From assembly GCA_023247795.1 (NCBI GenBank), contig JAHFFT010000001.1, positions 2,868 through 66,867 of the forward strand: DNA of 64,000 bases, read 5' to 3'. The translations under genes were made by a program, and so were the position numbers. This document shows positions 2,449 through 64,000 of this stretch, one piece after another (positions within the stretch are counted from its first letter, which is position 1; each line of letters starts with the position of its first letter). A model generated the notes under the pieces. The model was not told the DNA's origin, did not search any database, and worked only from the letters and a program-made list of their open reading frames with translations. The DNA is from Candidatus Omnitrophota bacterium (GTDB lineage: Bacteria; Omnitrophota; Gorgyraeia; Zapsychrales; JANLHA01).

Positions 2449-2976
2449 TCAGCTGCTCAATAGCCTTTTATAAATTCGATAATCCTGGTCATCAAAACAA
2501 CAGAAAATAACTTTTTCAATTGCGGATACGCGGGAAAGGAACTCTTTAACGGTGGCGACTGCTATCTGACCTGCTTTTTCTTTTGGAAAAAGGTAAACTC
2601 CGGTGCTGATGCAGGGAAAGGCCATTGATCGAATCTTATTTTCTTCGGCAAGCAAGAGCGACCGCTGATAACATCTTCTTAAAAATTCTGCTTCGCGATG
2701 CTGCCCGCCCTTCCAAACAGGCCCAACGGTATGAATCACATATTTTGCAGATAAACGATACCCTTTCGTTATCTTCGCCTCTCCCGTCTGACATCCACCG
2801 AGTGTACGGCACTCTGCAAGAAGCTGGGGGCCGGCGGCCCGATGGATCGCCCCATCAACGCCTCCCCCGCCGAGCAGTGAAGTGTTTGCGGCATTGACAA
2901 TCGCGTCAACCGACAATCGGGTGATGTCTGCGCAGACAGCTTCGCTTTGATTCATCGACTCCATGATAACCGTCAT
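2449..2976 (-). CDS. Macro domain protein (MacroD/YmdB-type O-acetyl-ADP-ribose deacetylase or ADP-ribosyl hydrolase)
   Basis: [36 protein letters not shown] is the canonical MacroD N-terminal motif. The start is probably MTVIMESM (2976) or MESM (2964); the ORF track extends to 3009. Convergent with yceI. Confidence 0.8.
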
Positions 2977-3075
2977 TCCCAATGAAAAAAAATCCTCGGA
3001 ACCGGACAAAAACTCCCCTCCCAGACTCTTTATTAAACAGATTCAATTTATCCTTTATTTTCAGACGAGTAGGAA

Positions 3076-12628: not shown

Positions 12629-14269
12629 TTAAAACTCGATATCCAAACCAAATTCCACTTGATAGGCGCCATCGGCCTCGCCATCCCGTCGAGGAGTAGG
12701 CGCGAATATGTTATTGGCGGCAGTATCGGCGCGGGTTTCCTTATAATAATCTCCCGGGAAAAAATATCCTGACAAAATACTAAACTTTATGGCTTTGGTG
12801 ATTTGATAACTAGCAAAGACATCCAATTCCTGGCCCAAGTCTTTTGAAAAAGTTTTTAAATTCCCATTGCCATCCAGACCCCATCCCGGTTCTTTTGAAC
12901 GCAAATACCAATAATCCACGCCGATATACCATTTTTCAAGTGGGGTATAATCAAATCCAACGGTCGAAGCAATCAAATTTTCAAACATGAAAGGGTCACC
13001 AAAGGTCCCGGGACGAGCGACGCCAAAATTGACCGCGTATCCGCCTGCCATTGCCACATAAGGACCAAACTGTTTCTGATAATGCGTATCGGTTAAATTG
13101 GTGTTTAATGGGGAAAAAACACTGAAGGCCTCATTTTCATTACTGGTGAGGGTAAGTTCATTATAATTCTGCGCGTTGAATCGGTTACCGGAGGCCATAA
13201 AAAATTTCGTCTTCGGTTTGAACGCCCCCAAATCATAACTGGCATCCGCAACCAAAAGATAACCTTTATGTTCGATATCATTTTGTGCCGTGTTGATGGC
13301 CTTCGCCTTTCCCAAATTTTGGTCCCCTTCAAACCCAAGATTCAGACGGTCAAAATTCAGTTTTAAATAAGCCCCTGGTGTCACAAGATCTTCGTTTTTC
13401 ACACGGGTGCTGAATCGACTTGCACGCGCACCTTCTGGTGTTCGATCCCTCAGCCAGCCGGTATAAAGTTGTAACCGTTGTTTACCCAATTTGAATGTCG
13501 TATCCGCCGTATAAAAGTAAGCATTGGTGTCATTCCAATCATTGACCTTCTCATGATCAATGACTTTTCCTAAATGAATACGATTATTCAGATCTTCTTT
13601 TTCCCAGTGGACATTCCAATCGAGTGATTCATTAACTCCAGAAAGGGTTAGCCCATAATTTTCATATTTTCCACCCAAGGCAATGTTATGACCAAGATCG
13701 CGTCCGTAAGGATACAGACCAAATTTGAAATTGACATCTTTCGTTGAATTCACCGGAACTTCCAGCCAGGTTTCTCTTAATCGAGGATATAAATCTGAGT
13801 TTTGGTACCAATGATACCGTCCAAATAAAGAGTTGATGCCACGGCTCCCATAAAGCGGGGCATCATAATCGGCGCGCCCCCTTCTTTCTACAAAAGAATA
13901 AAACTCAAGGCCGGAAAGATGGCGGAGATCAAAAGTAAAGTCATAAGCTAACCCAAGATAACTGGTCTTATCATTGTTATTCGCTAAATCAAGATCAACC
14001 GTATTGTTCACTAAATTATAAGACGTACGCAGGTGCGCTCCGGAATGAAATTTCCAATTTGATTCATCCAATAAAAAAGGATGTTTCTCAACATCCAAAT
14101 CTTTAACGTCTTTAAAATAACTCTGAGCATATATAGAGGAAGGCAGGGCAAATAAGGAAAGGAAAATAAAAATATTGACGAAAGGCTGAAGGAAAACTTT
14201 TTTACTTTTTTTGTTTTTACAAGTCATTCTCAAAGATTGTTGAGATTCAAATTTTATAACATCTCGCAA
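12629..14269 (-). CDS. Outer-membrane beta-barrel protein (porin/export-channel-like), putative
   Basis: Signal peptide (probable start MTCKNKKSKK...FALPSSIYAQS), alternating amphipathic strands rich in Y/G/N/D, and a C-terminal ...YQVEFGLDIEF ending in Phe, typical of BAM-targeted OMPs. It lies 17 bp upstream of the TPR lipoprotein on the same strand. Confidence 0.55.
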   Translation of the reverse strand: MRDVIKFESQQSLRMTCKNKKSKKVFLQPFVNIFIFLSLFALPSSIYAQSYFKDVKDLDVEKHPFLLDESNWKFHSGAHLRTSYNLVNNTVDLDLANNNDKTSYLGLAYDFTFDLRHLSGLEFYSFVERRGRADYDAPLYGSRGINSLFGRYHWYQNSDLYPRLRETWLEVPVNSTKDVNFKFGLYPYGRDLGHNIALGGKYENYGLTLSGVNESLDWNVHWEKEDLNNRIHLGKVIDHEKVNDWNDTNAYFYTADTTFKLGKQRLQLYTGWLRDRTPEGARASRFSTRVKNEDLVTPGAYLKLNFDRLNLGFEGDQNLGKAKAINTAQNDIEHKGYLLVADASYDLGAFKPKTKFFMASGNRFNAQNYNELTLTSNENEAFSVFSPLNTNLTDTHYQKQFGPYVAMAGGYAVNFGVARPGTFGDPFMFENLIASTVGFDYTPLEKWYIGVDYWYLRSKEPGWGLDGNGNLKTFSKDLGQELDVFASYQITKAIKFSILSGYFFPGDYYKETRADTAANNIFAPTPRRDGEADGAYQVEFGLDIEF

Positions 14270-14430
14270 ACATTTTTTATCCTAAGCATTTTTCGTTTCA
14301 ATTGCAAGTTTTTTTTAAATTTTTTGTGGGACAGGCCAAAAATCCCGGGTATCAGGGATAAAAGATGTTGCTGGTAAAAGTCGTAAATCCTTTTTCTCGT
14401 CGAATGTATTATAAAAATTTTTACTCTCAC

Positions 14431-14516
14431 ATAGCAAACGGATTTGCTATGTCCAAAAAATTTATCCTAGAAGTCGGCTGGAAGAATTCCTCGCAGCTAG
14501 CTGCGAGGAATTCGCT
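14431..14516. repeat. Two strong palindromes in a 408-bp intergenic region: atagcaaacggatttgctat and gaattcctcgcagctagctgcgaggaattc
   Basis: The second is a perfect 14-bp-arm inverted repeat with the CCTCGCAGC..GCTGCGAGG core, also seen at 1772-1797 and 41068-41087. Confidence 0.6.
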
Positions 14517-14606
14517 CGAGTAAAAACTGAAGATCAGAGGTATCGTGGTTTAACAGCAAGGATAAAATTCAATACTTAACTCAAGTCTCATGTCTCATCT
14601 CATATC

Positions 14607-14632
14607 GCAGGTCGCAAGTCATTTGTAACTTG
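14607..14632. repeat. CAAGT/ACTTG hairpin element (gtcgcaagt-catttgta-acttgcgac)
   Basis: Perfect 9-bp stem. Related CAAGT-rich hairpins occur at 22452-22497 and 50067-50097. It lies just 3' of the 14678-15778 gene on the minus strand, so it is a possible terminator. Confidence 0.5.
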
Positions 14633-14677
14633 CGACTTGGTACCTGGGACTTGTTACTTTGTCACTTCGCCGTGATG

Positions 14678-15778
14678 TTAATTGGGTCGCGGACCATCAC
14701 TGCCAAGGCCGCCCGGCTGACCACCAACATGATTGGCGTTATTCAGACCCGCGCCGCCCAGACCAGGTCTTTGCGTACCCTGACTTGATAATACCCCAGG
14801 CTTCGGCATGACAGGACCGACAGGCCGATTGCCATTTAACTCTTGATGGCCGGCTCCTTGCCCTTCCATTTGGGGAGATTGGTCGGACTGCATATTCCGC
14901 ATTTGACCTTGTTCTTCTTGACTATGCTCTTGCATCGCTCCCTTCGGTGCTTCATGTTGTACTTTTATCCCTCGCATTTTCTCATACTCGCTTTTCATTT
15001 GTTCTCGACGATCTTGCTGCTCTTCATGAGACGCTTGCATTTTCTCTTGATGCTGCTCTTTCATTTCCTGCAGCTGTTCATGCTCAGCATCCATCTGCTC
15101 TCGATACTCCTGTTGCTCTTCACGAACCGCTTGCATTTTCTCTTGATGCTGCTCTTTCATTTCCTGCAGCTGTTCATGTTGCGCCTTCATTTCTTCTCGC
15201 TGTTGCTGAAATTGTTCTTTATAAGCCTCTGCGCGTTCCGAATTAGCTAACGGCGGTTTTTGGTTAGGCCCGCTTATCAGTGGTCTATTCATTTCGCCCA
15301 TTGAAGCATTGGGACGAGAACCTTCTTGCTGATCACCCATAGGGCCATTATCACGTTGCCCCATCTGATCAGGTTGATTCATTGGTTGCTGCGAACCTTG
15401 ACGGTCATTATCTGTTCGTGGACCAACCTGAGAATTGCCTTGTTCACCTTGCTGCGCACCCGATTGCGGACGATTTTGTTCTCCACCCATACGATTGCCC
15501 TGAGATCCACCCTGGCCTTGCATTCCCGATCCGTTGGGCCGATCGTTATTCATACCAGGATCTCCTCTTTGGCCTCCTGGACCGCCAGAACCACCAGGTC
15601 CACCTGCTCCGCCTTGACCACCTTGATGTCCAGCGTTCATACCCTGTCCCGGACCGCCATGTCCACCTGGACCTCCAGCTCCCGGACCACCACCCGGCCG
15701 CGGCCCTTGCTGGGCGAAAACCACACCCGAAAGCGCTAAGCAAAAAATTCCAATCAAAGCCATGATTCTCATTTTCAT
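14678..15778 (-). CDS. Secreted low-complexity Gly/Gln/Pro/Met-rich protein with a tandem coiled-coil repeat
   Basis: Signal peptide MKMRIMALIGIFCLALSGVVFAQQ; long GGPG/QGG/MNxxxQ low-complexity tracts. The centre carries two copies of EQLQEMKEQHQEKMQA within 33-aa repeats. The plus-strand ORFs 14843-15250, 15326-15739 and others are antisense artefacts of the repeat. Confidence 0.6.
   Translation of the reverse strand: MKMRIMALIGIFCLALSGVVFAQQGPRPGGGPGAGGPGGHGGPGQGMNAGHQGGQGGAGGPGGSGGPGGQRGDPGMNNDRPNGSGMQGQGGSQGNRMGGEQNRPQSGAQQGEQGNSQVGPRTDNDRQGSQQPMNQPDQMGQRDNGPMGDQQEGSRPNASMGEMNRPLISGPNQKPPLANSERAEAYKEQFQQQREEMKAQHEQLQEMKEQHQEKMQAVREEQQEYREQMDAEHEQLQEMKEQHQEKMQASHEEQQDRREQMKSEYEKMRGIKVQHEAPKGAMQEHSQEEQGQMRNMQSDQSPQMEGQGAGHQELNGNRPVGPVMPKPGVLSSQGTQRPGLGGAGLNNANHVGGQPGGLGSDGPRPN
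15020..15220. repeat. Two tandem copies of a ~99-bp unit inside the Gly/Gln-rich gene
   Basis: Near-identical units gctcttca[tc]ga[ga]c[cg]cttgcattttctcttgatgctgctctttcatttcctgcagctgttcatg... are directly visible in the sequence. Confidence 0.7.
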
Positions 15779-16018: not shown

Positions 16019-19000
16019 CTAAAATTCTTGTAAAGACTTAACTCTTTTTGTTTCTTGATGATAGCTCAATTGCTCTTCGTTCGGTGGAACCGTTTTCCCG
16101 ATCAGAGCTGGTAAATTGGTCACAGGCTTGATCTCCATGATGATCGGCAGAAAGCCATCAAATTGTAAATTTTTAATCTGCTCCGGATCAAAATCAAACT
16201 TGATTGCTGGCCCTTCATTTTGAATCATCAGCTCCAAATTTTCCGGATTCAAGTCGATACCACCAACCTCCGATGAAGCATTTTGCGGAGCAATGGTAAT
16301 CGCCGACACCTGTGGATTATTTGTATTACCTAGAAAAAAGGAATCCTTCATCCCCGGAGCTAATACCAAATTTTGGTCTAATAAATCAAGATCATTGCTG
16401 TCTCCGTTTTCTTTCTTAACTTGATTTTTAGCAATGTCCCAGACCCCGCCAAACCCAAAATCGAAAGCCTTGCCAGCCCACCCAGGGTATCGAGCAAAAT
16501 CAATCTGAACAGCATTATCTTCTGCCATAACCGGCTTTCCAGTCTCTGGATCTCTGACCATCACTTTTCCCGTGGGATCAAAATAAAGTCCTAAATCCAA
16601 ATGCCAATTGACAATTTCTTGCGCGGTCTGCCGACTTTCACCGTTTGTTACCGCAAATGCCTTGGATTCAATCAACTGATTGATTTGGGCGGAAGCACTT
16701 TCTGACAAATCATGAGCGCTTTCAGAACGAGGCTTGGCATACCAAGATCTTTGAATCTCACCGGTTTCCGGGTCAAAGAGGGCCATGACCGCCTCCTGCC
16801 TTTTCCATTTGTATTGACCGGTAACGGTCGAATAAGTATCACTGCTGTAATAAAGTTCCATCCGATTATCACGCGAAGCCAAAACATAAATACGGTCGTG
16901 CATAAAAAACGCTTGATGGAACAGAAACAAATTGGGTTTACCTTCGGTTGTATTTTGACGGTTCTGCCTGACATATCTGGCAAATGCCTCTTTTGTGGGA
17001 GCATCCTTCGCGTTGATCACCTTGAATGAGTAATCCCCGCTGTTCACTTCGCCGATGACGCGATCTTCATCCCTGCGCCATTGAGCTTTTTTGTTTTTCT
17101 TGATCAGAAGTCTCTTGACCCGCCCCAATTCAACCGCCTTGGAAAATTTATAGCTCCGATATTTGTAGATCAATTCCGAAATGACGTATTTGAGATCCAC
17201 CACCTTCTCTGCCTTCTCAAATTGATAAACCAAAACGAGGTAATGCGTGATCAAAGCAAGAATATCGGCCTGATCACCCTCAGTTTTTACACCGAGTTCT
17301 TTGTCAACATCACGGATAAAATCCTGATCAATATACTCAGCCAGTTTTAGAATCCCATCTTTATCTTTCCCTAAAAAATATTTTTTCATCTCATCATTAA
17401 CTTCGATCGCCATTATTGTGTTCAACCGTTCTATTCTCCTTTCAAGCTTTAGTATTTCCTCTTGACCAAAATTTTCCTTTAACTGTAATTTTAGTAGCAC
17501 TAATTCATGCCTTCGTTCCGCGTTAGTCATTAATATGCTGCGGACTGGCACTTGAGTAAATTTGTGATACCCATTCGCCGTTAGGACCGGTGCTAAACGA
17601 TTCGCCTGAGCAAAAAAGTCAGCCCGATCTGACGGGTTTGTTGTAAGAACGATATCCAAGGCCAAAGCAATGAGATTGAGAATATTCCGGTAGCGGTCTG
17701 GATCAGATTGAAAAATCTTAGCCAAAGGAAAATCGACATCTAACTTGAAACGATTTCTTTCTTTTTCATCATTTTGGACAACAATCTTTAAAACGTTGCC
17801 GGGGCTGCGCTTTTTTATCGTTTTCTTGATTCGATCTCGATCGATATCCGCTTTCGTGATCTCATTGATCGCCATGGTTCCTTCTGTTCCAGCGGTCCCC
17901 TCGATTTCATCCTCGAATGCTTCAGGAACAGGTACGAGAGGGATATCCGACTTGGATTCTTTATGGCCTTCGACAATGGCAGCAATCGTTTGCTGTTGAA
18001 AATCTGTGAGATCTTCATCAACACCTGGTTTCGGTGTTCGAACAGGAAACCCTTTGCCAATCTCGGCCAAGACGGGTTTCAATTCACTCCATTCCTTAAT
18101 AGGCAATTTAGTAAATCGAGAACTTTCTCTCAATAAAACCAACCGCGAATAAATCCTGCCGACATGGCTTTCTGGTTCCAGTTCATCCAGTTCATGCAGA
18201 TCGATGGCTTCCAGCAACTCCGCGATATCATCCCTCGTTGCCTCAATCCTTTCCAAGTCACTCGCCACCGTCTGGCGAAAATACTCCATGACAACCTCTG
18301 ACGATTCCAAAATTTTTTTCATAGCGAACATCGCTTCTTCATCATCCATTTGATCACGGACCGAATTCATCCCTCTCGCGAAATAGCGAGTACATACCTC
18401 TGGTTCTCTTTCAAATTTCCCCAAAATCTTCGCAATCAACCCCTCACGTAATGCTGCTGCTAATTTTTGCACGTTCACACTGAATTTATTTTCCCTTCGA
18501 ATCATATCAAATGTTATAAGCTGACTGGCCGTAAGCTCTTGCTGACCTTTCCCACGTAAAATCTTGACCGCTTGCGGCAATTGCTTTTGTTGCGTTAGAA
18601 TGACGGCTAAAATCAATCGCTTTTGATCATCGGTCAATTGCGCGCTTTCTTTGATTCGCTTTTTTTCATCCAAATAATCCTGATTGGCATCAGCGACCAG
18701 GAACTTAACCGCGCGTTGCAAATATTCTGGCATTGCCTTGAGCATTTTATTATTTTGTAAAACATATCTTTGGTTTCCAGAATCGGGATCAAAAATTCTT
18801 CCGCAGCGCGTTGCGATGATTTTAAAAGGATACGAATCCCCGACCGAATCGTTATGAGTGGGTTCAAAATCAATCTTGCCCTCATCATCAATTCGACCTT
18901 CCAGCATCGTGGGCGTATACTCACTATGCATCGCCTCGGTTATCAAAACCTTTTCAACGGATTGATGGAACCGGCTTCTTTGATTTATCGCCAAGCTTTG

Positions 19001-22000
19001 AATTTTTTTGTCCGAAAGCGTAAACGCGCTTTTCCACGCAACACCGATGCCATTTTTCGATTTCAAATCTTGAATCTGAAACCGATACCCTTGCTGTTCA
19101 CTGCCCAAAACTTGAACTGAAAAATTCCTTCCCGAAAGCTTATCGTCATTCGCGAATAATAGCTCTGCCCCAGCACCCCTACCAACGATAAATTCCTTAC
19201 CTACGCTAAATGCCCTCACATCCCCAGCTAGTGCTGTGTCAATTGTTTTATCTGGAAACGCCTGTAGGTAGGCACGATCACCCGCAACCCAAAGCCGATA
19301 CCAACCTGTTCCGGCTTGGATCCAAACATCATCAATCAACTCTTGCATTCCCGTATCCAAGACCTTCTCTTCCCTCGTTTTCATATTTCTATCGTCTAAG
19401 ACTTGATCTTTAGTTTTGACCATCCTTTCCCATTCCACGGTGATGGATCTATCTGTATAAGTCCCTGTCTTAACTCGATAATTCTCTGTCCCTGGAATAG
19501 GGTCTACGACGATATAACAATGTTCCGATTGAAGGTTGGGATCATTCGGGAAATAAAGTTCATCGATCTGCTTATTTTTTCCAAAAGCATGGAGCTCTCC
19601 TAAACTTATTTTGTAAACTTTCGATTCGTTTGAGGGCGGACCATTCTTGATGTCATGCTGCAGGACCCGGACCTGGTTGTTCACAACCCGAATACTGTAC
19701 CAAAATTTTCCACCCTCGGGCTGGATCCACTGGACCCTACCGGGCAACAAAACAAATTCAACCGGTGCCGGAGTTTGCGATTCTCCCCGCCTATTGTTCG
19801 TCGGAGCCAAAACAACCGGCTTGCCCGCTTTTGTTTTCATATACCTTGCTGTTGCTCCTACTTTGGGAGCTGAATTAACCACAGCAGCATTGTCCATCGA
19901 TCTTTGAATGCCAATCAGATTGGATAAATTCTGATAGACACGGTGATAAAATCTTGCGTCTTGAGGAAAAAAGTCGGAGTCATAAATAAGACGGTTTGCC
20001 CACCCCAATGATAACCAATCCTTTTTCCGCAATTCGCTCATGATTTCAGCCTTTTCCACGAGACTTAAAACTTTCTCTTGTTTGAAATAATTTAAGGCTG
20101 CGTCATAATCATTTTTTAAAAGCGCCCCTAACAATTTAAAAGTTGCGTCGTTTTCTTTAGAATCACTTTGCATTTCACGCAAATATTGCACCAAATGATC
20201 CGCAGAAACTTGTTGAGGATATCTCTCTTGTAATTTCGCTTTCACGCGATTTTTAACTCGCAAAAAATTTTCGGTCGCATGTTCACCAAGCAAATAAGAA
20301 CGCTGCAACTCAGGTGTTTTCATGAAATTGAGCATTAAAGCATTGTCCACCGTACCAAAATAAGGATGAGCCTCTAGCGCATCCATATAACTACTCATTT
20401 TAGCAACGACTGCATCAAAGTCGTCGAAATCACCAGCGCTATACCCATCCTTCATGAGTGCCTCGGCAATGCCCTCTATCATTCGATCTTCATCAGGATT
20501 TTGAGATTCCACTGCGGTACCGATGGTGCTGACTTTATCTTGACGACCCGCGTTGGAATCAAGCAGTTGCTCCCGGTCCTGCTCGGTATATGCCCCGGTC
20601 CCCGTTCGTTGATCCGCCGTGACCCATTCTGCCGGTTGTTCCAGCAGTCCTAACTGCTCTCTGGCCCGTTTGATTTTGACCCGCCCATTGATTTCACTCA
20701 GCTCGTGCTGTTCGACCGCCTCGGTCATATCGTCGCTGAAACCGAGGACAATCCACTCTCCCCGGACCTTATCGAAATAGTTGATCGCCTTGATCCCGGC
20801 CTTGGCTCCGGTTTTACTGCTCATATGGTTGATCACCCATTTATCAAAAACTTTTCCTAATTCTGTTTCTTTCGCCCCGCGATCAATGCGGATGACCTTG
20901 ACTTTGTAGTTTAAGTCCTTTTGATTGATAACTTGCTGCCCCTCATAATCCAAGGTCTCGCCTGCTGCCACCTGCTGCTCAATCGACGGAGAAGCTGTTG
21001 GCAAAAACCCATTCTGGTCAAGAAGCCCAACGATATGATTCAAAATCTGGTCTTCACTGGCGTTTTCAGGAAGTTTTTTCCCCTTGGCAACGGTGTTCAA
21101 CAAACGAATCATCCGGTTATAATAGGTTACCGGGGTGACAACCGCGGAGGCATTATAAACTTTTTGGTTTTCTAATTGCGCGGAGGTTAAATTCTGAGCT
21201 TCTGATGAGACATCAATGGTGGTGACACCACTAACCTCTGTTCCTTTAAATCCTCCGGAAAAATATTTCCTCGGGATGGAGGCTTGAAGATACGGATCAT
21301 AATCTTCTTTGATGTAGTTATAAACCCCCTGCTTGAAGGCCGCGATATACTGCTCATAAATCTGCTGTTGACCGTCCTTGTCATCTGAATCAACTCCGAC
21401 GACCTTATTTTTATCCACATAAATGCTGTCGAGAATGCTTTCGCGCAACTTCTTTTTGAACCAGGTCGCGAGGATCATGGCGTTGTAAATCTGGCGCAAT
21501 TGGGCAAAATTCTGACCTTCATTGACTTCTTTTTCGATCGTCGGTAAAACGATTTTCTTGACGATGTCTGAAGAAAAAGTACTGACGCTACCAACATCCG
21601 TGTTAGTCAATGACTCCGTCCCTAAATTTTTATTGCCTCGATTGGAATCCAGAGCGAGATAATCTTCTTCCAACATCACCTGCAAATGACTTTCAATCAC
21701 AAAAGCGGTCGCGCCATTTTCATAGACCCGGGCCTTGTCAGGAACAATCCAGACTTTATTGAAGGTATTGATCGGGACGTTGGTGGTACCATATTCCTGA
21801 TAGGCCTTTTCATAAATTTCCTTCCAAAACTGCGCACCCAGCTCTTTTTCCGGGTAGATCAAAGAGGCAGTGATTTGCTTTAACAGATAGTCCTGGGCCA
21901 AAAGATCGCGCCCCATCTCGGTCTGACCAAACTGTTCGGGAATGATCCGATTTTCTTCATAGGGCGACAAATTGACCCACAAGTCCTTTTCCGGGACCGT

Positions 22001-22300
22001 CAGGGTTGCTAAAAAATATTTGATCATCTTTTGCGATTCTTCCTTCAAGGCTTGATCAGACAGCGTTTGGTCCCCAGGTGTTACGATGAAATCAAACCGA
22101 AAAGGGTTATTAGGGAAAACCTTCACCCCCTTTAACAAGGCCGGCGCAAAGGCCTGGCTTAGCCCGACCATCGAGCCTGCCTGCGGAAGATTGAGCGGTT
22201 GAATTTGCGCGAAACCATTCCCGGGGCTGATCAGATTGAAAAAAAAAGTGAAAATAATCAGCAGATTGATACTTCGATATTTTTTGATTTGCTTTGCCAT
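16019..22300 (-). CDS. Giant secreted protein (2093 aa) with FHA-like segments and a conserved ~55-aa C-terminal module
   Basis: A single uninterrupted 6.3-kb ORF with an N-terminal signal peptide (LLIIFTFFFNLISPGNGFA-QI). Internal FHA-like stretches (FIVGRGAGAELLFANDDKLSGRNFSVQVLGSEQQGYRFQIQDLKSKNGIGV). The C-terminal GGIDLNPENLELMIQNEGPAIKFDFDPEQIKNLQFDGFLPIIMEIKPVTNLPALIGK is homologous to the C-terminus of the 60206-63997 protein. Confidence 0.8.
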   Translation of the reverse strand: MAKQIKKYRSINLLIIFTFFFNLISPGNGFAQIQPLNLPQAGSMVGLSQAFAPALLKGVKVFPNNPFRFDFIVTPGDQTLSDQALKEESQKMIKYFLATLTVPEKDLWVNLSPYEENRIIPEQFGQTEMGRDLLAQDYLLKQITASLIYPEKELGAQFWKEIYEKAYQEYGTTNVPINTFNKVWIVPDKARVYENGATAFVIESHLQVMLEEDYLALDSNRGNKNLGTESLTNTDVGSVSTFSSDIVKKIVLPTIEKEVNEGQNFAQLRQIYNAMILATWFKKKLRESILDSIYVDKNKVVGVDSDDKDGQQQIYEQYIAAFKQGVYNYIKEDYDPYLQASIPRKYFSGGFKGTEVSGVTTIDVSSEAQNLTSAQLENQKVYNASAVVTPVTYYNRMIRLLNTVAKGKKLPENASEDQILNHIVGLLDQNGFLPTASPSIEQQVAAGETLDYEGQQVINQKDLNYKVKVIRIDRGAKETELGKVFDKWVINHMSSKTGAKAGIKAINYFDKVRGEWIVLGFSDDMTEAVEQHELSEINGRVKIKRAREQLGLLEQPAEWVTADQRTGTGAYTEQDREQLLDSNAGRQDKVSTIGTAVESQNPDEDRMIEGIAEALMKDGYSAGDFDDFDAVVAKMSSYMDALEAHPYFGTVDNALMLNFMKTPELQRSYLLGEHATENFLRVKNRVKAKLQERYPQQVSADHLVQYLREMQSDSKENDATFKLLGALLKNDYDAALNYFKQEKVLSLVEKAEIMSELRKKDWLSLGWANRLIYDSDFFPQDARFYHRVYQNLSNLIGIQRSMDNAAVVNSAPKVGATARYMKTKAGKPVVLAPTNNRRGESQTPAPVEFVLLPGRVQWIQPEGGKFWYSIRVVNNQVRVLQHDIKNGPPSNESKVYKISLGELHAFGKNKQIDELYFPNDPNLQSEHCYIVVDPIPGTENYRVKTGTYTDRSITVEWERMVKTKDQVLDDRNMKTREEKVLDTGMQELIDDVWIQAGTGWYRLWVAGDRAYLQAFPDKTIDTALAGDVRAFSVGKEFIVGRGAGAELLFANDDKLSGRNFSVQVLGSEQQGYRFQIQDLKSKNGIGVAWKSAFTLSDKKIQSLAINQRSRFHQSVEKVLITEAMHSEYTPTMLEGRIDDEGKIDFEPTHNDSVGDSYPFKIIATRCGRIFDPDSGNQRYVLQNNKMLKAMPEYLQRAVKFLVADANQDYLDEKKRIKESAQLTDDQKRLILAVILTQQKQLPQAVKILRGKGQQELTASQLITFDMIRRENKFSVNVQKLAAALREGLIAKILGKFEREPEVCTRYFARGMNSVRDQMDDEEAMFAMKKILESSEVVMEYFRQTVASDLERIEATRDDIAELLEAIDLHELDELEPESHVGRIYSRLVLLRESSRFTKLPIKEWSELKPVLAEIGKGFPVRTPKPGVDEDLTDFQQQTIAAIVEGHKESKSDIPLVPVPEAFEDEIEGTAGTEGTMAINEITKADIDRDRIKKTIKKRSPGNVLKIVVQNDEKERNRFKLDVDFPLAKIFQSDPDRYRNILNLIALALDIVLTTNPSDRADFFAQANRLAPVLTANGYHKFTQVPVRSILMTNAERRHELVLLKLQLKENFGQEEILKLERRIERLNTIMAIEVNDEMKKYFLGKDKDGILKLAEYIDQDFIRDVDKELGVKTEGDQADILALITHYLVLVYQFEKAEKVVDLKYVISELIYKYRSYKFSKAVELGRVKRLLIKKNKKAQWRRDEDRVIGEVNSGDYSFKVINAKDAPTKEAFARYVRQNRQNTTEGKPNLFLFHQAFFMHDRIYVLASRDNRMELYYSSDTYSTVTGQYKWKRQEAVMALFDPETGEIQRSWYAKPRSESAHDLSESASAQINQLIESKAFAVTNGESRQTAQEIVNWHLDLGLYFDPTGKVMVRDPETGKPVMAEDNAVQIDFARYPGWAGKAFDFGFGGVWDIAKNQVKKENGDSNDLDLLDQNLVLAPGMKDSFFLGNTNNPQVSAITIAPQNASSEVGGIDLNPENLELMIQNEGPAIKFDFDPEQIKNLQFDGFLPIIMEIKPVTNLPALIGKTVPPNEEQLSYHQETKRVKSLQEF

Positions 22301-26505: not shown

Positions 26506-27267
26506 TCAATGCTGGCTTAAGATCGGCTGTTTAAACCGCAGATCGATATAATTGATCTGATTCAAATCAAGGTTGCCCTGACTCAAAACCAAGGCCAGCT
26601 GTTGGAGTTTCGCTTCAACACGATCCCGATCCATAATCACCCTGACTTTATTGTCAAGGATCATCTGGATTTGCGATAAGCTTTCAATCTGAAAAGAAAC
26701 AATCTCAAATTTTTTAAGGTCTTCTTGCTCCCGCATCAACCGCATGATTCGCAAAGCAATTTCGATCTCTTTTGAATTCAGATGCTTACCCAAAACCGGC
26801 TGCTGCTCAAGTTTGACTCCATTGATGGTCGGCAGATCCGGATACCCCTTCGCATCAAAGGCGATCGCGTATCCCTGTTCATCGATCACCATGTCTTTGC
26901 CTCTGCTGGAAAAAACAGCGACCGGATCACGTCTTTTAGCAACGATATAAATTTTATCAGGGAACCGCCGGTAAACCTTAAGATCTTCCACGTTCGGGTA
27001 CTGCGTTTGCAGACGCCGATGGAGCTCCTTAAGATCCACGGAAAAAATATTCTTTCCCTCCAAGTAAGAAATTTGTTTGGGTTCAATGAATTGCAGCGAT
27101 GGCGCCAGCACAACCGCTTTGATTCTAAACATCTTGGCGTCTTTAAACGAGCGGACTGTACTTCGCGTTAGCGCCACGACCAAAAAAGCAAAAACCAAAA
27201 ACAGAATCAAAAACTTTAAAAACTTTGTTCCCAATGGAGCAGGCTTTTTATTTCCGCGTTTCGTCAT
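26506..27267 (-). CDS. ftsQ: Cell division protein FtsQ/DivIB
   Basis: Start set at MTKRGNKK, where ATGA overlaps the murC-ddl stop. It has a single TM (FLKFLILFLVFAFLVVAL) and POTRA-like/FtsQ C-terminal domains. Confidence 0.75.
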   Translation of the reverse strand: MTKRGNKKPAPLGTKFLKFLILFLVFAFLVVALTRSTVRSFKDAKMFRIKAVVLAPSLQFIEPKQISYLEGKNIFSVDLKELHRRLQTQYPNVEDLKVYRRFPDKIYIVAKRRDPVAVFSSRGKDMVIDEQGYAIAFDAKGYPDLPTINGVKLEQQPVLGKHLNSKEIEIALRIMRLMREQEDLKKFEIVSFQIESLSQIQMILDNKVRVIMDRDRVEAKLQQLALVLSQGNLDLNQINYIDLRFKQPILSQH

Positions 27268-29633
27268 AATAGGGCACTTAAATTTTGCAATACTTGCGTC
27301 CTTCTTTTGATGGCCAACCCAAGAATGGTCCAACACAGATCGTCAAAACTCAAACCTGCTTTTTGCGCGGCCATGGGCAAAAGGCTGGTCTCGGTGAAAC
27401 CCGGGATGGTATTGGCCTCCAAAAAATAACTTTGATTCTTTTCATCCAACATAAAGTCCATGCGGGCCAGATCCCTGGCTCCGATCATGGTGTAAATCGC
27501 GAGCGCTATCCTTTGCAGTTCCTGAGCTAATTCTGCCGGTAAATCCGCGGGTACCAGATATTCCGTGAGCCCTTTCTGATATTTGGCCTCGGAATCAAAA
27601 AATTCCCGTTTGGTCCTGATCTCGATCACCGGCAACGGTTCACCGTCGAGGATCCCAACCGTCACTTCCCGTCCCCGGATGTACTGTTCGACGATAACTT
27701 CATCGGCTAAGGCGGCGGCATCCTTCACAGCCTGATCATATTGTTCCGCGGTTCTCACAATGGCCACCCCAAAACTCGACCCTGCACATGCTGGCTTGAC
27801 CACCAACGGAAAAGCCATGCGGCACGCATCCAAAGAGTTCAAATCACGCACTGCGATCCGTTGATAAGCCGCCACGTTGATGTGTTGGCCGCTTACAAAA
27901 TCCTGCATTTTCCCTTTATGAAAAGCCAGCCGGCTTGGCCCTACGCCGGAACCGGTATAGACAAACTTCCCTTCTTCCAAAATCGTCTGCAACTGGCCGT
28001 CCTCGCCAAAATCGCCGTGCAGCGCGTTGAAAACAACATCGACCTCCTTTTCAAAAAGCAGGGATAAAATTGTTTTCCGATCGGTCGAAGTCAAATCAAA
28101 TGCGGAGACCCTGGCACCTTTTCTTTTCAAGGCTTCATAAATCGCTTTGCCTGATTTCAAAGAAACATCCCTTTCCGGAGAAACCCCGCCCATCACGACG
28201 GCAATATGGTCGGTCTGCTTGGAAGGACTGATCAACGACGCGGTCACCTGATCCGGCGATCTTCTTTCCTTAAGCCGCTGCACAAGGATATCTGATATCT
28301 GTGTGATGTCCCCCGCGCCCAGAGTCAGCACCAGATCACCGGGCTGAACGATTTTGAGAATGTGTTCGACAATCTGTTCTTTGCGTAAATAAATCGCTTC
28401 AGAAAAATCCCTGGCTTTCAGCCGGTCACAGATGTCCTGAGCGCTGATCTGATTATTATTTTCTTCACTCGCGGCATAGATATCGGTCACGATCAAGCGG
28501 TCCGTCAACATGAGACTACTGATGAATTCTTCCAACAAAAATTTCGTTCTGGAAAAACGATGCGGTTGAAAAATGGTGATGATCCGCTTTTTATTCAAAC
28601 TGCGCGCCGTCTTCAGCGTCTGTATGATCTCCGTCGGATGATGTCCGTAATCATCCACAACGCTGATGTCATCGACTTCCCCCTTCCATTGGAATCGGCG
28701 TTTGACGCCCTGGTAAATCTGCAGCGACTGCTGCATCATCGAAAAAGACAACTCCAATTCTAACCCGACCGCGATCGCGGCCAGAGAGTTAAGGATGTTA
28801 TGTTCTCCGGGAACGGCTAAGATCACCGGGCCCAACAAGCGGCCCTGCAAATAACAATCATATTGAGAATGGCCTCCACCGTCGGCGAGTTTTTGAATGT
28901 TGCGCGCCTGCAATTCATTATGATCTAAGAAACCATAGGTGAGGAACCGACGTGATGAGCGTTTCACAATACTCTTTAACGTTTCCTGATCTCCCCAGGC
29001 AATGACCTTTCCCTGCGGCTGGGTCTGCTGGATGAACTGTTGATACGCCCCGACGATATGCTGCAGGCTGCGATAATAATCCAGATGTTCCATGTCCAAA
29101 TTGGTGACCACCGAAAGGAAGGGATAAAAGCATAAAAACGTCCCATCACTTTCATCGATCTCAGCGACAAAATGTTTACCGCGGCCAACCCGGGCGTGAT
29201 TTTCGGTTCCGCGGATGATCCCGCCGACCGCCGTTGAAGGATCCAGCCCCGCGTGGATGAGCAGATTGGCAATCATTGCCGTCGTGGTGGTTTTCCCGTG
29301 CGCCCCGGCGATCGTTATCCCAATATATGTTTGCATCAATTCGGCAAGGCATTCCGCTCGTCTTAAAATCCGTAAATCCCTTCGTTTGGCCTCCTGCAAT
29401 TCCGGATTATCAAGGGAGACCGCCGAGGAATAAACAACCACCGGCGCCCCGTCGAGATTAGCGGCAGCATGACCGATGGCGATCCTGGCACCTTGTTCAC
29501 GCAGTTTCCGCACCATTTTATTTTCAGTAGTATCAGAGCCGCTCACCTGACAGCCCTGGCGCAGCATGAGCGAGGCAATCGTGCCGACCCCAATCCCGCC
29601 AATTCCGATGAAATGATATTTTTTCTCCATCAC
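27264..29633 (-). CDS. murC: Bifunctional UDP-N-acetylmuramate--L-alanine ligase / D-alanine--D-alanine ligase (MurC-Ddl fusion)
   Basis: The N-terminal half is MurC (HFIGIGGIGVGTIASLMLRQGCQVSGSD; ITIAGAHGKTTTTAMIANLL). The C-terminal half is Ddl (IAVVMGGVSPERDVSLKSG; ATP-grasp EANTIPGFTETS). It is one continuous 789-aa ORF. Confidence 0.9.
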   Translation of the reverse strand: MMEKKYHFIGIGGIGVGTIASLMLRQGCQVSGSDTTENKMVRKLREQGARIAIGHAAANLDGAPVVVYSSAVSLDNPELQEAKRRDLRILRRAECLAELMQTYIGITIAGAHGKTTTTAMIANLLIHAGLDPSTAVGGIIRGTENHARVGRGKHFVAEIDESDGTFLCFYPFLSVVTNLDMEHLDYYRSLQHIVGAYQQFIQQTQPQGKVIAWGDQETLKSIVKRSSRRFLTYGFLDHNELQARNIQKLADGGGHSQYDCYLQGRLLGPVILAVPGEHNILNSLAAIAVGLELELSFSMMQQSLQIYQGVKRRFQWKGEVDDISVVDDYGHHPTEIIQTLKTARSLNKKRIITIFQPHRFSRTKFLLEEFISSLMLTDRLIVTDIYAASEENNNQISAQDICDRLKARDFSEAIYLRKEQIVEHILKIVQPGDLVLTLGAGDITQISDILVQRLKERRSPDQVTASLISPSKQTDHIAVVMGGVSPERDVSLKSGKAIYEALKRKGARVSAFDLTSTDRKTILSLLFEKEVDVVFNALHGDFGEDGQLQTILEEGKFVYTGSGVGPSRLAFHKGKMQDFVSGQHINVAAYQRIAVRDLNSLDACRMAFPLVVKPACAGSSFGVAIVRTAEQYDQAVKDAAALADEVIVEQYIRGREVTVGILDGEPLPVIEIRTKREFFDSEAKYQKGLTEYLVPADLPAELAQELQRIALAIYTMIGARDLARMDFMLDEKNQSYFLEANTIPGFTETSLLPMAAQKAGLSFDDLCWTILGLAIKRRTQVLQNLSALL

Positions 29634-58720: not shown

Positions 58721-58789
58721 AAATAAACCATACCACATCTTGTACAGTTTGCAAGTTAAATATTCAATTAGTACAGATTTGTTCTCAAA

Positions 58790-58910
58790 CCTTAATTCCC
58801 AAAAAGGTCGACAGATCGTAAAGCGGCTGGACATTGATGATGACCGGGACAAAACCTGGAGCATTTTGCAATTGTTTGAGCAGGGCGGGATCGAGATGAA
58901 ATTGGATTTT
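58790..58910 (-). pseudogene. Orphan 3' fragment of the giant-gene C-terminal module (about 40 codons, in frame after a stop)
   Basis: The minus-strand translation IKIQFHLDPALLKQLQNAPGFVPVIINVQPLYDLSTFLGIK* is about 90% identical in both DNA and protein to the last 40 codons plus stop of the 60206-63997 gene (compare 60212-60335). It is preceded by an in-frame TAA and has no start codon. Confidence 0.65.
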
Positions 58911-58976
58911 TATGGAATACACAATTCTTCGGTTGTTTTAAAAATATTATTGACAAAGGCTCCATATTCGTCGAAA

Positions 58977-60205: not shown

Positions 60206-63200
60206 CTATTTAATTCCCAAAAAGGCCAATAAATCGTACAGCGGCTGGACATTGATGATGACGGGGACAAAACCCGGGGCATCTTGCAGTTGCTTGAGTA
60301 GGGCGGGATCAAGATGAAATTGGATTTCACCGTTCTGATTTACTTTCAGGTTCATTTTGTTAGGATCGAAATCAATACCACCAAGCTGATCAGGACGATC
60401 CGACATCTCCGGTGCTGCGTCCTCACCTAACATCAACCGATCCGACGCTCCTCCGCCATTGGGCTTCTGATTTTGTAAACTGTCCTCTGCATTACTTTGC
60501 ACTTCTCTAATTTTAGCTTCAATGCGATTGACCGCGTCAGGGTACAATTTACCTTCAACGAAATCGGCCTCATTCAAAGGAACCCAATATTTCGCTTCAA
60601 TCTTCTCTATCCCAACACCGATTAAATCATTGGAATGGTTTTCAAAATGTTCACGCATCAATGCGAACGCATCGGCTGTAGATAAATATTTTATCATTTT
60701 AATAAAATCCACACTGCTGTTTATCGCAGCAACTTGCTTAGTTAGTCTTTCCTCGATATCCAATTCCATTAATTCTGTCTTGTCATCCAAGGTTGGCGTA
60801 TACTCCCCTAATTTTTGAATATATATTGTATGTTCTTTCCCTTCCTCAATGTCACAAGAATAGCCAATGTTGCGCAAAATAATTGATAATATTTCTTTAT
60901 CCTTATATTCACTGTCAAATAAAATGAACCAACCATCATTCTCAAGGACACGCATAACCTCTTTTAAGACCACCATAAAATCTTTGATCGAAATAAAATA
61001 TACCATCACAAAAGACTCGTTGATAATGTCTATGGACTGATTACTAAATGGTAGCCGACGGAGATCACCATTGACAAGCTGCACACCTGGCAACGATTGT
61101 TTAGGATCGATATCCATATCAATGCCTATCCCTTCTACTTGATCACCTAATTCTTTCCTAAGTTCGACCAACGCCCTGCCTTCTGGACCAGAACCCAAAT
61201 CTAAAACCCGCAATTTACCTGGCGCCTTTCGCGCCAGATGGTCTTTGATCAGCTCCAAATGTTTTAGCAAATAATCCGGTCTATTACTATCACGGGCATA
61301 TTTCTGATGAAACACCTCCCACAAAAAAATCTCGTCTTTCTCAAGAGTCCCCAATTCTTTCAGACGATTTATTAATCTTCCCACAATCTTACCTTGCAAA
61401 AGTTCTTGCATATTAAACTTTCTAAAATATTGGACCATAATCATGCCAAGATGTTCTGGGATTGGCTTTTGAATTCCACTGAAACGAAGCCATCCTTCGT
61501 TTAACAGTCGCACTTTTTCATCCATGCTCAAAGACTCCTCCCCCAATTTAACACTCAAAATTTCTGCGAATTTTTCAACATCATCTCCGGTCTCATTCAA
61601 TATTCCCTGAAATATATCCTGACCAAGCATTAGACGATCCGCTGTTTCTACAGTAGCAGACGGCTCCGCCAAATCCCTCATCGCCATTTCATCTAATATT
61701 TCAATAGAAGGATTCTTTGCCATCCTGATCTGCTCCGGCTCTAAAACCGCGATATGAATATTCCTACTCCCAAACATAACCGCATCTTCATCTTGCAGCT
61801 CTCTCAATCCTGTAAAAAATAAATTATCGTATGCTTTTCCCAAAAATTCTGTGACATTGACATATTCAGGATGCCGTTCAATGACATTCAAAGGTTTTCT
61901 GACATTCAAAAAAGCAGACATTAAAATCTTCTTTACTGTATTAGGGACATATAATTGCTCTCCATTAATTTTTATAAGATGACAATTAATTTTATTTGGT
62001 GCTAATCCATCAAATAAATCAGCAAGCTCTGATTGAACAAACAAATTCTTTCCATCAAAAACTACGATTCCAGGTTTCTTTGTAAACGATACCCGATCCA
62101 GATTCTCTGCGTTTTCGATAAATTCATTCCATTTTTTAAACACTGCAGGCGTATCGGTAAGATTAAACTTTTCTTTTAGCAGAGATAACATGCTTTTTAA
62201 AAATTTAAATCTAAAATAGCTAAATTCATTCACAACAAAATCTCGATCTGAAGAGAAATAAAATGCATGTCTTTCACCAAAATCAAAATTCCTGCGCGCA
62301 TTTTTATCAAATTCATTAAATTCCCTGCCAGTTCCATGATAAAAAATTTTGGGCTCACCGGTTTCGGCATCAATCATTTTCGAGGCTAATTCGGGATGAT
62401 TTATCCAATCTCCAAACCATGCGATAAAATCAGGATCTCTCACTTGTAAAAAATGTAGGAGCCCAAGTTTAGAGGGTTTGCCATTTGGCGCTTTCAATTC
62501 AACCACTTTTCCATCTTGAATTTTAATGTTTCCATTCAAAACTTCTCTATTAAAAATCTGCTTATAAATTTCTATATCAATATGATCATCATATCTTTCT
62601 GTCAATGTTGACAACATCAATCGATCAAATCGCCCAACTTCATCCGCTGTTTCTACAGCGGCAGGCGGCTCCGCCAGATCCCTCATCGCTTGATTGCGCT
62701 CGGTGATCTGCTGATCGAGATCAGCGCTGCTACGCATCTCGATTCGATAGACCATTGCTTGCTCGCTTATCATCTCTTCAACCACTTTTTGGAATAAAAC
62801 CGCTGTCTCCGGCGAAGAATGGATGACCCTTCTGTAAATCTCCCTCTGATTTTTATCATTAATCCGCCAATAGGAAACATATCTCCTTATGAACTCTTCC
62901 ATTGATAAATCCAAAGGAACCCACCCCCATTCCGATTCCGGCAATTGCCTGATGAACGCGATCGTCGCTGCCGGTAAATTCAATCGCCGCGGCAGAACCT
63001 CATTAAAAATGCTGTCGCGGGACGGACTTTCAACGCCAATGGTATCCGCAAATCGATCCAGATGGTATAAACGAAACAGCAAGGCTCCAAGATGATCATC
63101 TCTCTCTTTCATCAGCGCCCTTTCCACAGCAAAATCAAAAAATTCTGCATTCGCAACATTGATTCTCTGGGCAACAAACAGCTCTTTCATAATTTTTTGA

Positions 63201-63997
63201 TGACCTTTTCCAGCAAGTGATTGGTACACCTCCCAAAGCAATCGTACCTGCTGTTTTTCGTTCAAATGTCTTAAAGGGATAAGTTGCTGAAGTCGTCTCG
63301 CCAGTTCCTCAAAATTCCTTGCCGTCATAATTGGATAAATCAATGTGGATGAAGACAGCCCCATCAATTCCGCGATCTTTGTATAAGCCCTTATCAGATC
63401 TCGATAATCTTTTGCCTTTTTAAAAAGTATTTTTTTTCGCGTGTAAATTAAGCTATACGGTGAGACGCTGCTCAAATCGCGATTCTCCAATGCATAAGCA
63501 ATGATTTCATCTTTAAAACGTTTAAAGGCATCGAATTCCGCGTCAAACATCTCAGGAGTTTGATTTGGATTGACATTGATTTTCCTTAAAACATTTTTTC
63601 TAAAAAAATAATTGTGAAGTTCATGATGAAATTCGTGTCTTGAGGTACTGTCGTCTTTAAAAATTTTGGTTTCTTGCAAGCTTTTGGCTAATTTGGGCCT
63701 TGGTAATAGCATAAACCCCACATCTCTGCTATTACTGCTCATAAAACAAACAGCCACTCCATTAAAAATAAATAATTTTTGATCACGGAGCAATTCAAAA
63801 AAAGGATCTTCAACTTCCAGCATAAACACACCCGGTTTGATTTCGATCAAAACTCCAGCTTTCCGATTTGCTTGGACGTCGCTCGGGCCAATCTGATATT
63901 GTTTAATGAACTCTAAAACCTGTTTCAAATCTTCCGCAATCTTCTTTGCTCCCCTATTGAAACCATTTGCAATGATAGCAACTGACAGAAAATACAA
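60206..63997 (-). CDS. Giant modular protein (more than 1263 aa, N-terminus beyond the window) with an embedded class-I SAM methyltransferase domain and the shared C-terminal module
   Basis: The ORF is open to the window edge. The MTase domain lies at about 60911-61210 (RVLDLGSGPEG motif I; GIDMD; LPFSNQSIDII; LKEVMRVLENDGWFILFD). A thrice-repeated linker motif reads (ETAD..)DRLML. The C-terminal GGIDFDPNKMNLKVNQNGEIQFHLDPALLKQLQDAPGFVPVIINVQPLYDLLAFLGIK is homologous to the C-terminus of the 2093-aa protein. Confidence 0.75.
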   Translation of the reverse strand: MYFLSVAIIANGFNRGAKKIAEDLKQVLEFIKQYQIGPSDVQANRKAGVLIEIKPGVFMLEVEDPFFELLRDQKLFIFNGVAVCFMSSNSRDVGFMLLPRPKLAKSLQETKIFKDDSTSRHEFHHELHNYFFRKNVLRKINVNPNQTPEMFDAEFDAFKRFKDEIIAYALENRDLSSVSPYSLIYTRKKILFKKAKDYRDLIRAYTKIAELMGLSSSTLIYPIMTARNFEELARRLQQLIPLRHLNEKQQVRLLWEVYQSLAGKGHQKIMKELFVAQRINVANAEFFDFAVERALMKERDDHLGALLFRLYHLDRFADTIGVESPSRDSIFNEVLPRRLNLPAATIAFIRQLPESEWGWVPLDLSMEEFIRRYVSYWRINDKNQREIYRRVIHSSPETAVLFQKVVEEMISEQAMVYRIEMRSSADLDQQITERNQAMRDLAEPPAAVETADEVGRFDRLMLSTLTERYDDHIDIEIYKQIFNREVLNGNIKIQDGKVVELKAPNGKPSKLGLLHFLQVRDPDFIAWFGDWINHPELASKMIDAETGEPKIFYHGTGREFNEFDKNARRNFDFGERHAFYFSSDRDFVVNEFSYFRFKFLKSMLSLLKEKFNLTDTPAVFKKWNEFIENAENLDRVSFTKKPGIVVFDGKNLFVQSELADLFDGLAPNKINCHLIKINGEQLYVPNTVKKILMSAFLNVRKPLNVIERHPEYVNVTEFLGKAYDNLFFTGLRELQDEDAVMFGSRNIHIAVLEPEQIRMAKNPSIEILDEMAMRDLAEPSATVETADRLMLGQDIFQGILNETGDDVEKFAEILSVKLGEESLSMDEKVRLLNEGWLRFSGIQKPIPEHLGMIMVQYFRKFNMQELLQGKIVGRLINRLKELGTLEKDEIFLWEVFHQKYARDSNRPDYLLKHLELIKDHLARKAPGKLRVLDLGSGPEGRALVELRKELGDQVEGIGIDMDIDPKQSLPGVQLVNGDLRRLPFSNQSIDIINESFVMVYFISIKDFMVVLKEVMRVLENDGWFILFDSEYKDKEILSIILRNIGYSCDIEEGKEHTIYIQKLGEYTPTLDDKTELMELDIEERLTKQVAAINSSVDFIKMIKYLSTADAFALMREHFENHSNDLIGVGIEKIEAKYWVPLNEADFVEGKLYPDAVNRIEAKIREVQSNAEDSLQNQKPNGGGASDRLMLGEDAAPEMSDRPDQLGGIDFDPNKMNLKVNQNGEIQFHLDPALLKQLQDAPGFVPVIINVQPLYDLLAFLGIK

Positions 63998-64000
63998 TAC

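Follow-up and report, generated by a model that had tools for sequence, protein, structure and literature searches.

The tail domain analyzed here lies at the C-terminal ends of two giant proteins, A and B, encoded on the minus strand of a 64,000-nt stretch of contig JAHFFT010000001.1 from a Candidatus Omnitrophota bacterium (the whole stretch is called the window hereafter). Because this C-terminal domain (CTD) is almost always coupled in complete genes to one conserved N-terminal domain (NTD), it is the constant end of a single expanded protein family with a variable middle, not a free tag, and proteins A and B are best seen as two members of this family with different middles. As far as the searched databases and literature show, the tail domain has not been described. 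Once the protein has been exported by Sec, the tail may bind a conserved component of the producing cell and act as a signal for export, sorting or docking, a reading that is the most likely one and still tentative. An earlier note on this DNA had proposed a sorting or docking signal carried by otherwise unrelated proteins; its interpretation took the right direction and is partly supported, but it overlooked the head-and-tail family.

Protein A (16019..22300, minus strand) is a complete family member of 2093 residues. Protein B (60206..64000, minus strand) consists of modular cargo followed by the tail domain and has at least 1264 residues, its N-terminus lying beyond the window edge; sequence records consulted for the missing part gave short contigs only. 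BLASTP aligns the tail ends of the two proteins colinearly with 22 of 60 residues identical (37%, E 5e-12). When the whole proteins are compared, the tail is the sole significant segment (E 7e-10), the remaining segments having E >= 0.29; the claim that the upstream parts are unrelated holds for the 1206 visible residues of protein B, which is cut by the window edge. A hidden Markov model (HMM) of the tail built without any window sequence matches three of the 749 six-frame open reading frames (ORFs) of the window, namely protein B (2.7e-28), a truncated remnant (1.7e-23) and protein A (2e-18), and no other ORF among them even at E<=100. The shared C-terminal module of the earlier note is real by both measures.

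Copy B of the tail (GGIDFDPNKMNLKVNQNGEIQFHLDPALLKQLQDAPGFVPVIINVQPLYDLLAFLGIK; 60209..60382, minus strand) forms the final 58 residues of protein B immediately before the stop codon at 60206-60208, exactly where it had been placed. Copy A (GGIDLNPENLELMIQNEGPAIKFDFDPEQIKNLQFDGFLPIIMEIKPVTNLPALIGK; 16094..16264, minus strand) is of a divergent subtype and covers residues 2013-2069 of protein A. It is followed by a polar extension of 24 residues (TVPPNEEQLSYHQETKRVKSLQEF; 16022..16093, minus strand) and the stop codon at 16019-16021. The earlier note had located copy A at 16019-16195, which is off by 75 nt and spans the 24-residue extension together with only the final 34 residues of the module. 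Its description of the module as the last 55-58 residues is correct for protein B, where the 58 residues are truly terminal, and incorrect for protein A. The orphan fragment that it had mentioned does exist (58788..58937, minus strand; ...KIQFHLDPALLKQLQNAPGFVPVIINVQPLYDLSTFLGIKV*). This remnant of 50 codons holds profile positions 34-72 only, that is, the C-terminal two thirds of the module, and its DNA is about 89% identical to that of copy B over about 118 nt; the similarity ends abruptly upstream, where none is left. Two AAA_14 + DUF4143 ATPase genes flank the remnant in opposite orientation (57542-58864, minus strand; about 58977-60158, plus strand), and the start of the minus-strand gene overlaps it. 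A recent inverted duplication of this gene pair was rejected because the two genes are merely 30% identical.

A search profile made from the two window copies and their six first matches was scored against 1.84 billion representative proteins, the counts being protein clusters at the 50% identity level. The tail is found in 5330 representative proteins at E<=1e-3 and in 1916 at E<=1e-10, so that the expected recurrence of the module at the C-terminus of other proteins is borne out in thousands, most complete members carrying a signal peptide. In each of the 154 inspected sequences, 0-26 residues follow the tail before the C-terminus, and in 83 of the 84 copies on genome loci, 0-24 residues separate it from the stop codon. 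The host proteins span 69 to 2491 residues, many of the short ones being fragments of short contigs. The core of the tail is about 58 residues long (about 72 with its linker), and its consensus is GGIDLTPANMNLQTQN-G--IKFHLDPAMLQQLQNAPGFVPVIINIQP(M/L)--L--FLG(L/I), in which GG, G-F-x-P and P are invariant; it ends in polar, not basic, residues. Both window copies are divergent members. A second subtype has the sequence GGINLN..LDLQIKRD..GFLPVIINI.PV.LPLLLG, and copy A stands between it and the canonical type.

The family is restricted in lineage. When one genome was scanned for each GTDB species, 106 tail copies were confirmed, essentially all of them in metagenome-assembled genomes (MAGs) of Candidatus Omnitrophota, a member of the Planctomycetes–Verrucomicrobia–Chlamydiae (PVC) group; a single strict nine-residue pattern gave up to 8 copies per MAG. 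Some tail-bearing MAGs carry other submitter labels, mostly 'uncultured Planctomycetales', and single ones are labelled 'uncultured Alphaproteobacteria bacterium' and 'bacterium'. A phage origin was rejected because the tail is absent from viral contigs. In-frame insertions such as DSRFRGND and VIPAKAGIQ, which resemble a translated small repeated DNA element, occur within family proteins; they lie in the tail loop of P0053, P0123, P0127 and P0132 and after the N-terminal motif in L022, L026 and L051.

The N-terminal part of the family architecture is also conserved. Protein A, which is a called gene in ENA ERZ27297570, starts with a Sec-type signal peptide (MAKQIKKYRSINLLIIFTFFFNLISPGNGFAQ; 22205..22300, minus strand) that has a basic n-region, a hydrophobic core with a 12-residue hydropathy of 2.66 and a GFA-Q cleavage-like site; judged by eye and hydropathy, it agrees with the earlier statement that at least one of the two proteins has such a peptide. 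The NTD follows at residues 33-350 (21251..22204, minus strand) and ends in PRKYFSGG. A long variable middle with no Pfam match then leads to the tail domain. In 32 of the 43 complete host ORFs on the genome loci, a Sec-type signal peptide stands first and the NTD comes next; 3 more have a truncated version. Among the best tail matches, the NTD is present in 20 of the 24 proteins with at least 1000 residues. In complete genes, the module therefore nearly always goes together with this one N-terminal domain, also in protein A, and does not sit on otherwise unrelated proteins.

The NTD is about 310 residues long, has the pattern (D/E)F.LPAPGVMVHLSP.F.PP.LKGIKVHPDNPFRFDFILD..., with protein A as a divergent member, and is rich in invariant Trp, Tyr and Phe (P0241-P0360 included). 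It has 1578 homologues at E<=1e-10, none of which is named and nearly all of which come from sources called Omnitrophica or Omnitrophota. No Pfam family covers it, and the head profile has no sequence match in the PDB. As judged from gene maps, nearly all of the ORFs that seem to carry only a tail are cut by a locus edge, belong to split genes or lie directly downstream of a complete gene. In split genes, the tail ORF lies on the same strand directly downstream of a head-only ORF (L024, L029, L049, L063 and L078). Tail ORFs directly downstream of a complete gene are found in L019, where one stop codon lies between, in L031, where the orphan has 148 residues, and in L032. In MAGs, a single in-frame stop codon or an overlap divides many family genes into separate head and tail ORFs (L019, 4131/4135; L063, 3672/3676; also L029, L049 and L078). 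Such splits could be sequencing errors, pseudogenes or recoding.

The constant ends are joined to the variable middle by a short linker motif, D-x-A-M. The layout of the family is a Sec signal peptide, the NTD, D-x-A-M, one or more cargo domains each bordered by D-x-A-M, a final D-x-A-M, the tail stretch GGIDL..IKFHLDPAMLQQLQNAPGFVPVIINIQP..L..FLG and a short polar end. The motif precedes GGIDL by 8-12 residues (D in 114/150, A in 97/134 and M in 70/91), and it is found within 40 residues after the NTD end (...PRKYFSGG) in 83 of 166 proteins, compared with 4.7% of control windows. It occurs 221 times in 135 proteins, whereas 7.3 occurrences are expected from shuffles, and its density is 1.37 per 1000 residues, in contrast to 0.12 in neighbouring genes; the few neighbouring genes with at least two copies are family members themselves. 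The motif marks domain borders.

Protein B carries the variant DRLML three times (residues 459, 788 and 1187), at all three of its domain borders: between the HEFHH and ART segments (residues 459-463; 62612..62626, minus strand), between the ART and methyltransferase segments (residues 788-792; 61625..61639, minus strand) and 15 residues before GGIDF of copy B (60428..60442, minus strand). The first two are preceded by a 48-nt direct repeat whose copies are 92% identical and 1005 nt apart. Copy 1 (61637..61684, minus strand) encodes AMRDLAEPSATVETAD and overlaps the DRLML at 61625-61639 by 3 nt, and copy 2 (62642..62689, minus strand), which encodes AMRDLAEPPAAVETAD, stops 15 nt short of the DRLML at 62612-62626. 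The linker encoded by this repeat, AMRDLAEP.A.VETAD, stands between unrelated domains, which suggests a recent linker duplication or a cassette exchange. D-x-A-M is also biased in its codons, GAT-NNG-GCG-ATG, with G at two wobble positions. Its Ala is encoded by GCG in 51% of the motifs against 23% of other Ala-Met pairs, Gln by CAG in 24 of 27 cases and Arg by CGG in 13 of 23. An internal ribosome-binding site at the motif was rejected because there is no Shine-Dalgarno-like signal upstream. D-x-A-M makes a good candidate processing site.

Most of the variable middles are without a Pfam match, and the domains that are matched differ from protein to protein. In protein B, an HEFHH sequence (residues 122-126) is followed by ART-PolyVal (residues 546-594), an S-adenosylmethionine (SAM) methyltransferase (residues 929-1031) and then the tail. 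The HEFHH motif, of the HExxH type (63623-63637, minus strand), lies in the first visible segment of the protein; this segment, which lacks Pfam support, may be a zincin-like protease and so be of relevance to self-processing. Elsewhere the cargo includes ABC1 kinase, GNAT, PLD, histidine phosphatase, DnaJ, M48 peptidase, glycosyltransferase, PRTase and response-regulator receiver domains. These are enzymes that need cytoplasmic cofactors or targets, typical of effectors acting inside a cell. Because such cytoplasm-dependent enzymes sit on Sec-exported proteins, it makes most sense that they act inside another cell. Effector-like cargo also fits the host-dependent or predatory lifestyle that has been proposed for Omnitrophota (PMC10066038; 10.1101/2023.11.21.568195).

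Conservation of the tail acts at the level of the peptide. Paralogous tails share 68-73% of their amino acids and only 47-52% of their third codon positions, both within and between MAGs, so selection acts on the tail peptide while synonymous sites are close to saturated, and gene conversion does not keep the copies alike. The maximum DNA identity of tails within a MAG is 85%. In spite of this conservation, the tail is not predicted to fold alone. An AlphaFold2 (AF2) model from a 124-sequence alignment has a confidence (pLDDT) of 65 and a predicted template modelling score (pTM) of 0.24, and consists of two 3-residue strands, a helix over DPAxLxQL, a coil formed by the invariant GFVPVIINVQP and a short final helix. 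In the AF2 model of the full-length P0256 (600 residues), the NTD is modelled confidently, with a pLDDT of 80-97, and the tail, with a pLDDT of 24-47, is left unplaced. Docking of the tail onto the NTD within one protein was rejected on the basis of this undocked model, in which the tail alignment is shallow (about 14-20 rows). The NTD model is helix-rich with two long beta-hairpins, and neither the PDB nor BFVD holds a structure significantly similar to it. The maximum 19-residue hydropathy of the tail is 0.9-1.6, and its hydrophobic stretches are broken by Pro, Asp and Gln. Because the tail is highly conserved yet not predicted to fold alone, these models would be most simply explained if it folded on a conserved partner.

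In the proposed mechanism, a family protein would cross the inner membrane by the Sec pathway. The tail would then bind a conserved partner of the producer cell, which would be either a component for export or translocation at the outer membrane or an anchor at the surface. In this binding, the invariant hydrophobic strand of the tail (GF-P-I-N-P) would probably join a beta-sheet of the partner, and the cargo would thereby be sent outside or placed on the cell surface. D-x-A-M sites may be processed to free the cargo from the head and the tail. The idea of an export or sorting signal in the earlier note stands as the most likely reading of the tail, and the tests that could have refuted it came out in its favour: the tail recurs at the ends of other exported proteins, and no HMM match makes it an ordinary internal domain. 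No link to a secretion or sortase-like machine emerged. Several observations weigh against an export or docking signal. All-against-all clustering of 579 ORFs from 79 loci revealed no secretion, sortase-like or protease gene linked to the family, its recurrent neighbours being solely generic tetratricopeptide repeat (TPR) proteins and further family members, and no secretion gene lies next to protein A or B in the window. The lack of a linked machinery, protease or partner is the main weakness of all functional readings. P0091 and P0137 are long tail-bearing proteins that seem to have neither a signal peptide nor the NTD, and if they are complete genes they would not be in line with Sec-dependent export. 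The near-constant coupling of the tail to the NTD means that the tail could be half of that unit and not an independent signal. Cleavage at D-x-A-M is inferred only, and the codon bias of the motif has no explanation. [quoted passage not shown]

The same coupling of head and tail around a variable middle would also be expected if the two ends together worked as MARTX or AB toxins do, as a delivery device that binds to, or inserts into, a host or prey cell's envelope and brings the central cargo across, the cargo then being freed at D-x-A-M; the tail would then be part of a translocator and not the export signal of the producer. The layout is indeed mirrored, running from NTD...GG through 1-35 residues to D-x-A-M and the cargo, and from D-x-A-M through 8-12 residues to GG...CTD, and the cargo enzymes depend on cytoplasmic cofactors. 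The only fold matches of the NTD model, all non-significant, include colicin Ia and two pore-forming toxins, NheA and MakA. However, AF2 leaves the tail undocked from the NTD, and the tail has no amphipathic or transmembrane segment, as its low hydropathy indicates. Its very high conservation across MAGs from many habitats also favours a partner inherited with the family over diverse host surfaces. A delivery device is therefore considered unlikely. A role that does not involve the crossing of a membrane is that of an obligate oligomerization or assembly domain, such as a foldon or an intertwined dimer, or of a scaffold-docking module in the dockerin–cohesin manner. A strictly terminal, strongly conserved sequence that does not fold as an AF2 monomer and contains the hydrophobic, beta-prone invariant strand FVPVIINIQ would suit this role, and 19 of 30 tail copies show sub-threshold Pfam matches to the COMM domain (PF07258), an obligate dimer. 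These matches reach only 13-16 bits against a cut-off of 22.4 and cover just 27 residues, and homology to COMM was rejected because hhalign gives a probability of 0.1% against the COMM domain of COMMD1 (sequence verified against 8f2u_A). In addition, no scaffold with repeated receptor modules is found among the neighbours in the 79 loci, and there is no evident reason for very diverse enzymes to share one oligomeric state, so that oligomerization or scaffold docking appears distinctly improbable.

A further explanation places the function in the DNA. The conserved ends could be homology arms through which paralogues and orphan copies exchange cargo cassettes, as in polymorphic toxin loci or antigenic variation, and the peptide itself would matter little. 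Orphan or truncated ORFs of cargo plus tail directly downstream of complete genes (L019, L031 and L032), the truncated window remnant with about 89% identity to copy B, the repeated linker DNA between unrelated domains of protein B and the codon bias of D-x-A-M are all in line with such exchange. The third codon positions of the tail have nevertheless diverged far more than its amino acids, and even the most similar tails within a MAG retain too little DNA identity for efficient homologous recombination. Recombination between linkers may well occur, yet it leaves the tail unexplained. Near-saturated synonymous sites largely refute gene conversion or a DNA-level role of the tail as the main explanation, and homology arms are accordingly given very little weight.

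The window itself resembles an ordinary piece of chromosome, with a division and cell wall (dcw) cluster, DNA ligase, MTHFR and a UvrD-like helicase. A 366-residue ORF with no Pfam match, an Alginate_exp-like outer-membrane barrel and then two TPR proteins lie directly downstream of protein A (12632-15778, minus strand); this arrangement is not conserved near other family genes. A single case is L001, a nanopore contig with many broken genes, where T2SS-K, PilM and PilN genes (1-2209) are located some 8 kb upstream of a fragmentary gene that bears the tail. The dcw cluster of the window contains a fused MurC-Ddl gene (27267-29633, minus strand) that encodes 789 residues with a Mur ligase and a D-Ala-D-Ala ligase and is followed by FtsQ and FtsA. 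At 2452-3870 on the minus strand, a Macro-domain gene and a SIR2 gene are adjacent, a pairing associated with ADP-ribose metabolism or signalling.

The tail (more than 5000 clusters at 50% identity) and the head (more than 1500 relatives) define a very large uncatalogued protein family whose members carry diverse enzyme domains of the kind that pathogens inject into other cells. Omnitrophota are widespread, uncultured and ultra-small bacteria that are thought to depend or prey on other cells (PMC10066038; 10.1101/2023.11.21.568195). The tail profile is a handle for listing candidate effectors, for seeking the partner that recognizes the tail and for testing whether these bacteria have an export or delivery route of their own, and D-x-A-M is a concrete, testable candidate processing site. 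It is somewhat doubtful that the tail and NTD mark the substrates of an undescribed, Omnitrophota-specific pathway for export or cell-to-cell delivery. If they did, one HMM would suffice to list every effector that these ultra-small, host-dependent bacteria direct at their hosts, and a dedicated protease would recognize D-x-A-M for processing.

Neither the window copies nor 30 diverse tail copies match any model of Pfam-A or NCBIfam even at E<=10, apart from the sub-threshold COMM matches, and PDB sequence searches with the tail profile gave nothing. The tail motif strings are absent from the searched literature, and the Omnitrophota papers examined make no mention of the domain. A T9SS, PEP-CTERM or other NCBIfam sorting domain was rejected because there are no matches at E<=10, and the comparison with PF18962, TIGR04183 and TIGR02595 that the earlier note had called for came out as it anticipated. 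The absence of a PEP motif, LPXTG and RTX repeats from the module was likewise upheld, and the module has no transmembrane helix either. PEP-CTERM/exosortase (TIGR02595), GlyGly-CTERM and LPXTG signals combine a short signature motif (PEP, GG or LPXTG), a transmembrane helix and a basic end, whereas the tail has neither PEP nor LPXTG, no such helix and a polar end. Substrates of the type I secretion system (T1SS) of the RTX type have no signal peptide, Gly-rich nonapeptide repeats and a poorly conserved signal, whereas this family has signal peptides and a highly conserved tail, and Pfam finds no RTX repeats in its proteins. Effectors of the bacteria-killing type IV secretion system (T4SS) with XVIPCD-type C-terminal recognition domains are taken from the cytoplasm and have no Sec signal peptides; no sequence relation between those domains and the tail was detected. 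In two-partner secretion, TpsA proteins have an N-terminal beta-helix TPS domain, in contrast to the helix-rich NTD with its two beta-hairpins and no Pfam match.

The likeness to the T9SS CTD is closer. Both are conserved domains at the extreme C-terminus of differing cargoes with a Sec signal peptide (here protein A and 32 of 43 complete host ORFs), and both occur in many copies per genome within a restricted lineage. The T9SS CTD is recognized by the translocon and then cut off, and it forms a compact 7-stranded Ig-like beta-sandwich (PMC11285876). The tail differs from it in having no sequence match to PF18962 or TIGR04183 even at E<=10, in being tied to one NTD and in occurring in the PVC group, not in Bacteroidota. 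It is also shorter (58 residues compared with about 70-100), and its low-confidence model, which is weak evidence, has two short strands and two helices.

In architecture, the family recalls toxins with constant ends. MARTX toxins have constant N- and C-terminal regions around a variable effector array, with processing sites between the effectors and release after delivery; their arms are Gly-rich repeats, they are exported by T1SS with no Sec signal, and an embedded cysteine protease domain does the processing. The family shares the constant ends, the variable array and the border sites. It differs in its Sec signal peptides, and Pfam finds neither Gly-rich repeat arms nor an embedded cysteine protease domain in its proteins. 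Polymorphic toxins such as Rhs and contact-dependent inhibition (CDI) proteins (PMC3482391) likewise form large paralogous families in which a constant end for trafficking is combined with a variable enzymatic part; short motifs mark the junction, and truncated or orphan cassettes are located downstream of full genes. There, however, the toxin is C-terminal and is accompanied by an immunity gene, whereas here the C-terminus is constant and the variable part central, and no conserved, immunity-like downstream gene family is found in the 79 loci. Protein B, which strings together ART-PolyVal (PF18760), a methyltransferase and HExxH with repeated linkers, resembles the polyvalent proteins of phages and conjugative elements; by contrast, the tail is on no viral contig and the genes lie among chromosomal housekeeping genes. 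Although defining features of each of these systems fail here, by analogy the tail most resembles the T9SS CTD in function, and the family most resembles MARTX toxins and polymorphic toxin loci in architecture.

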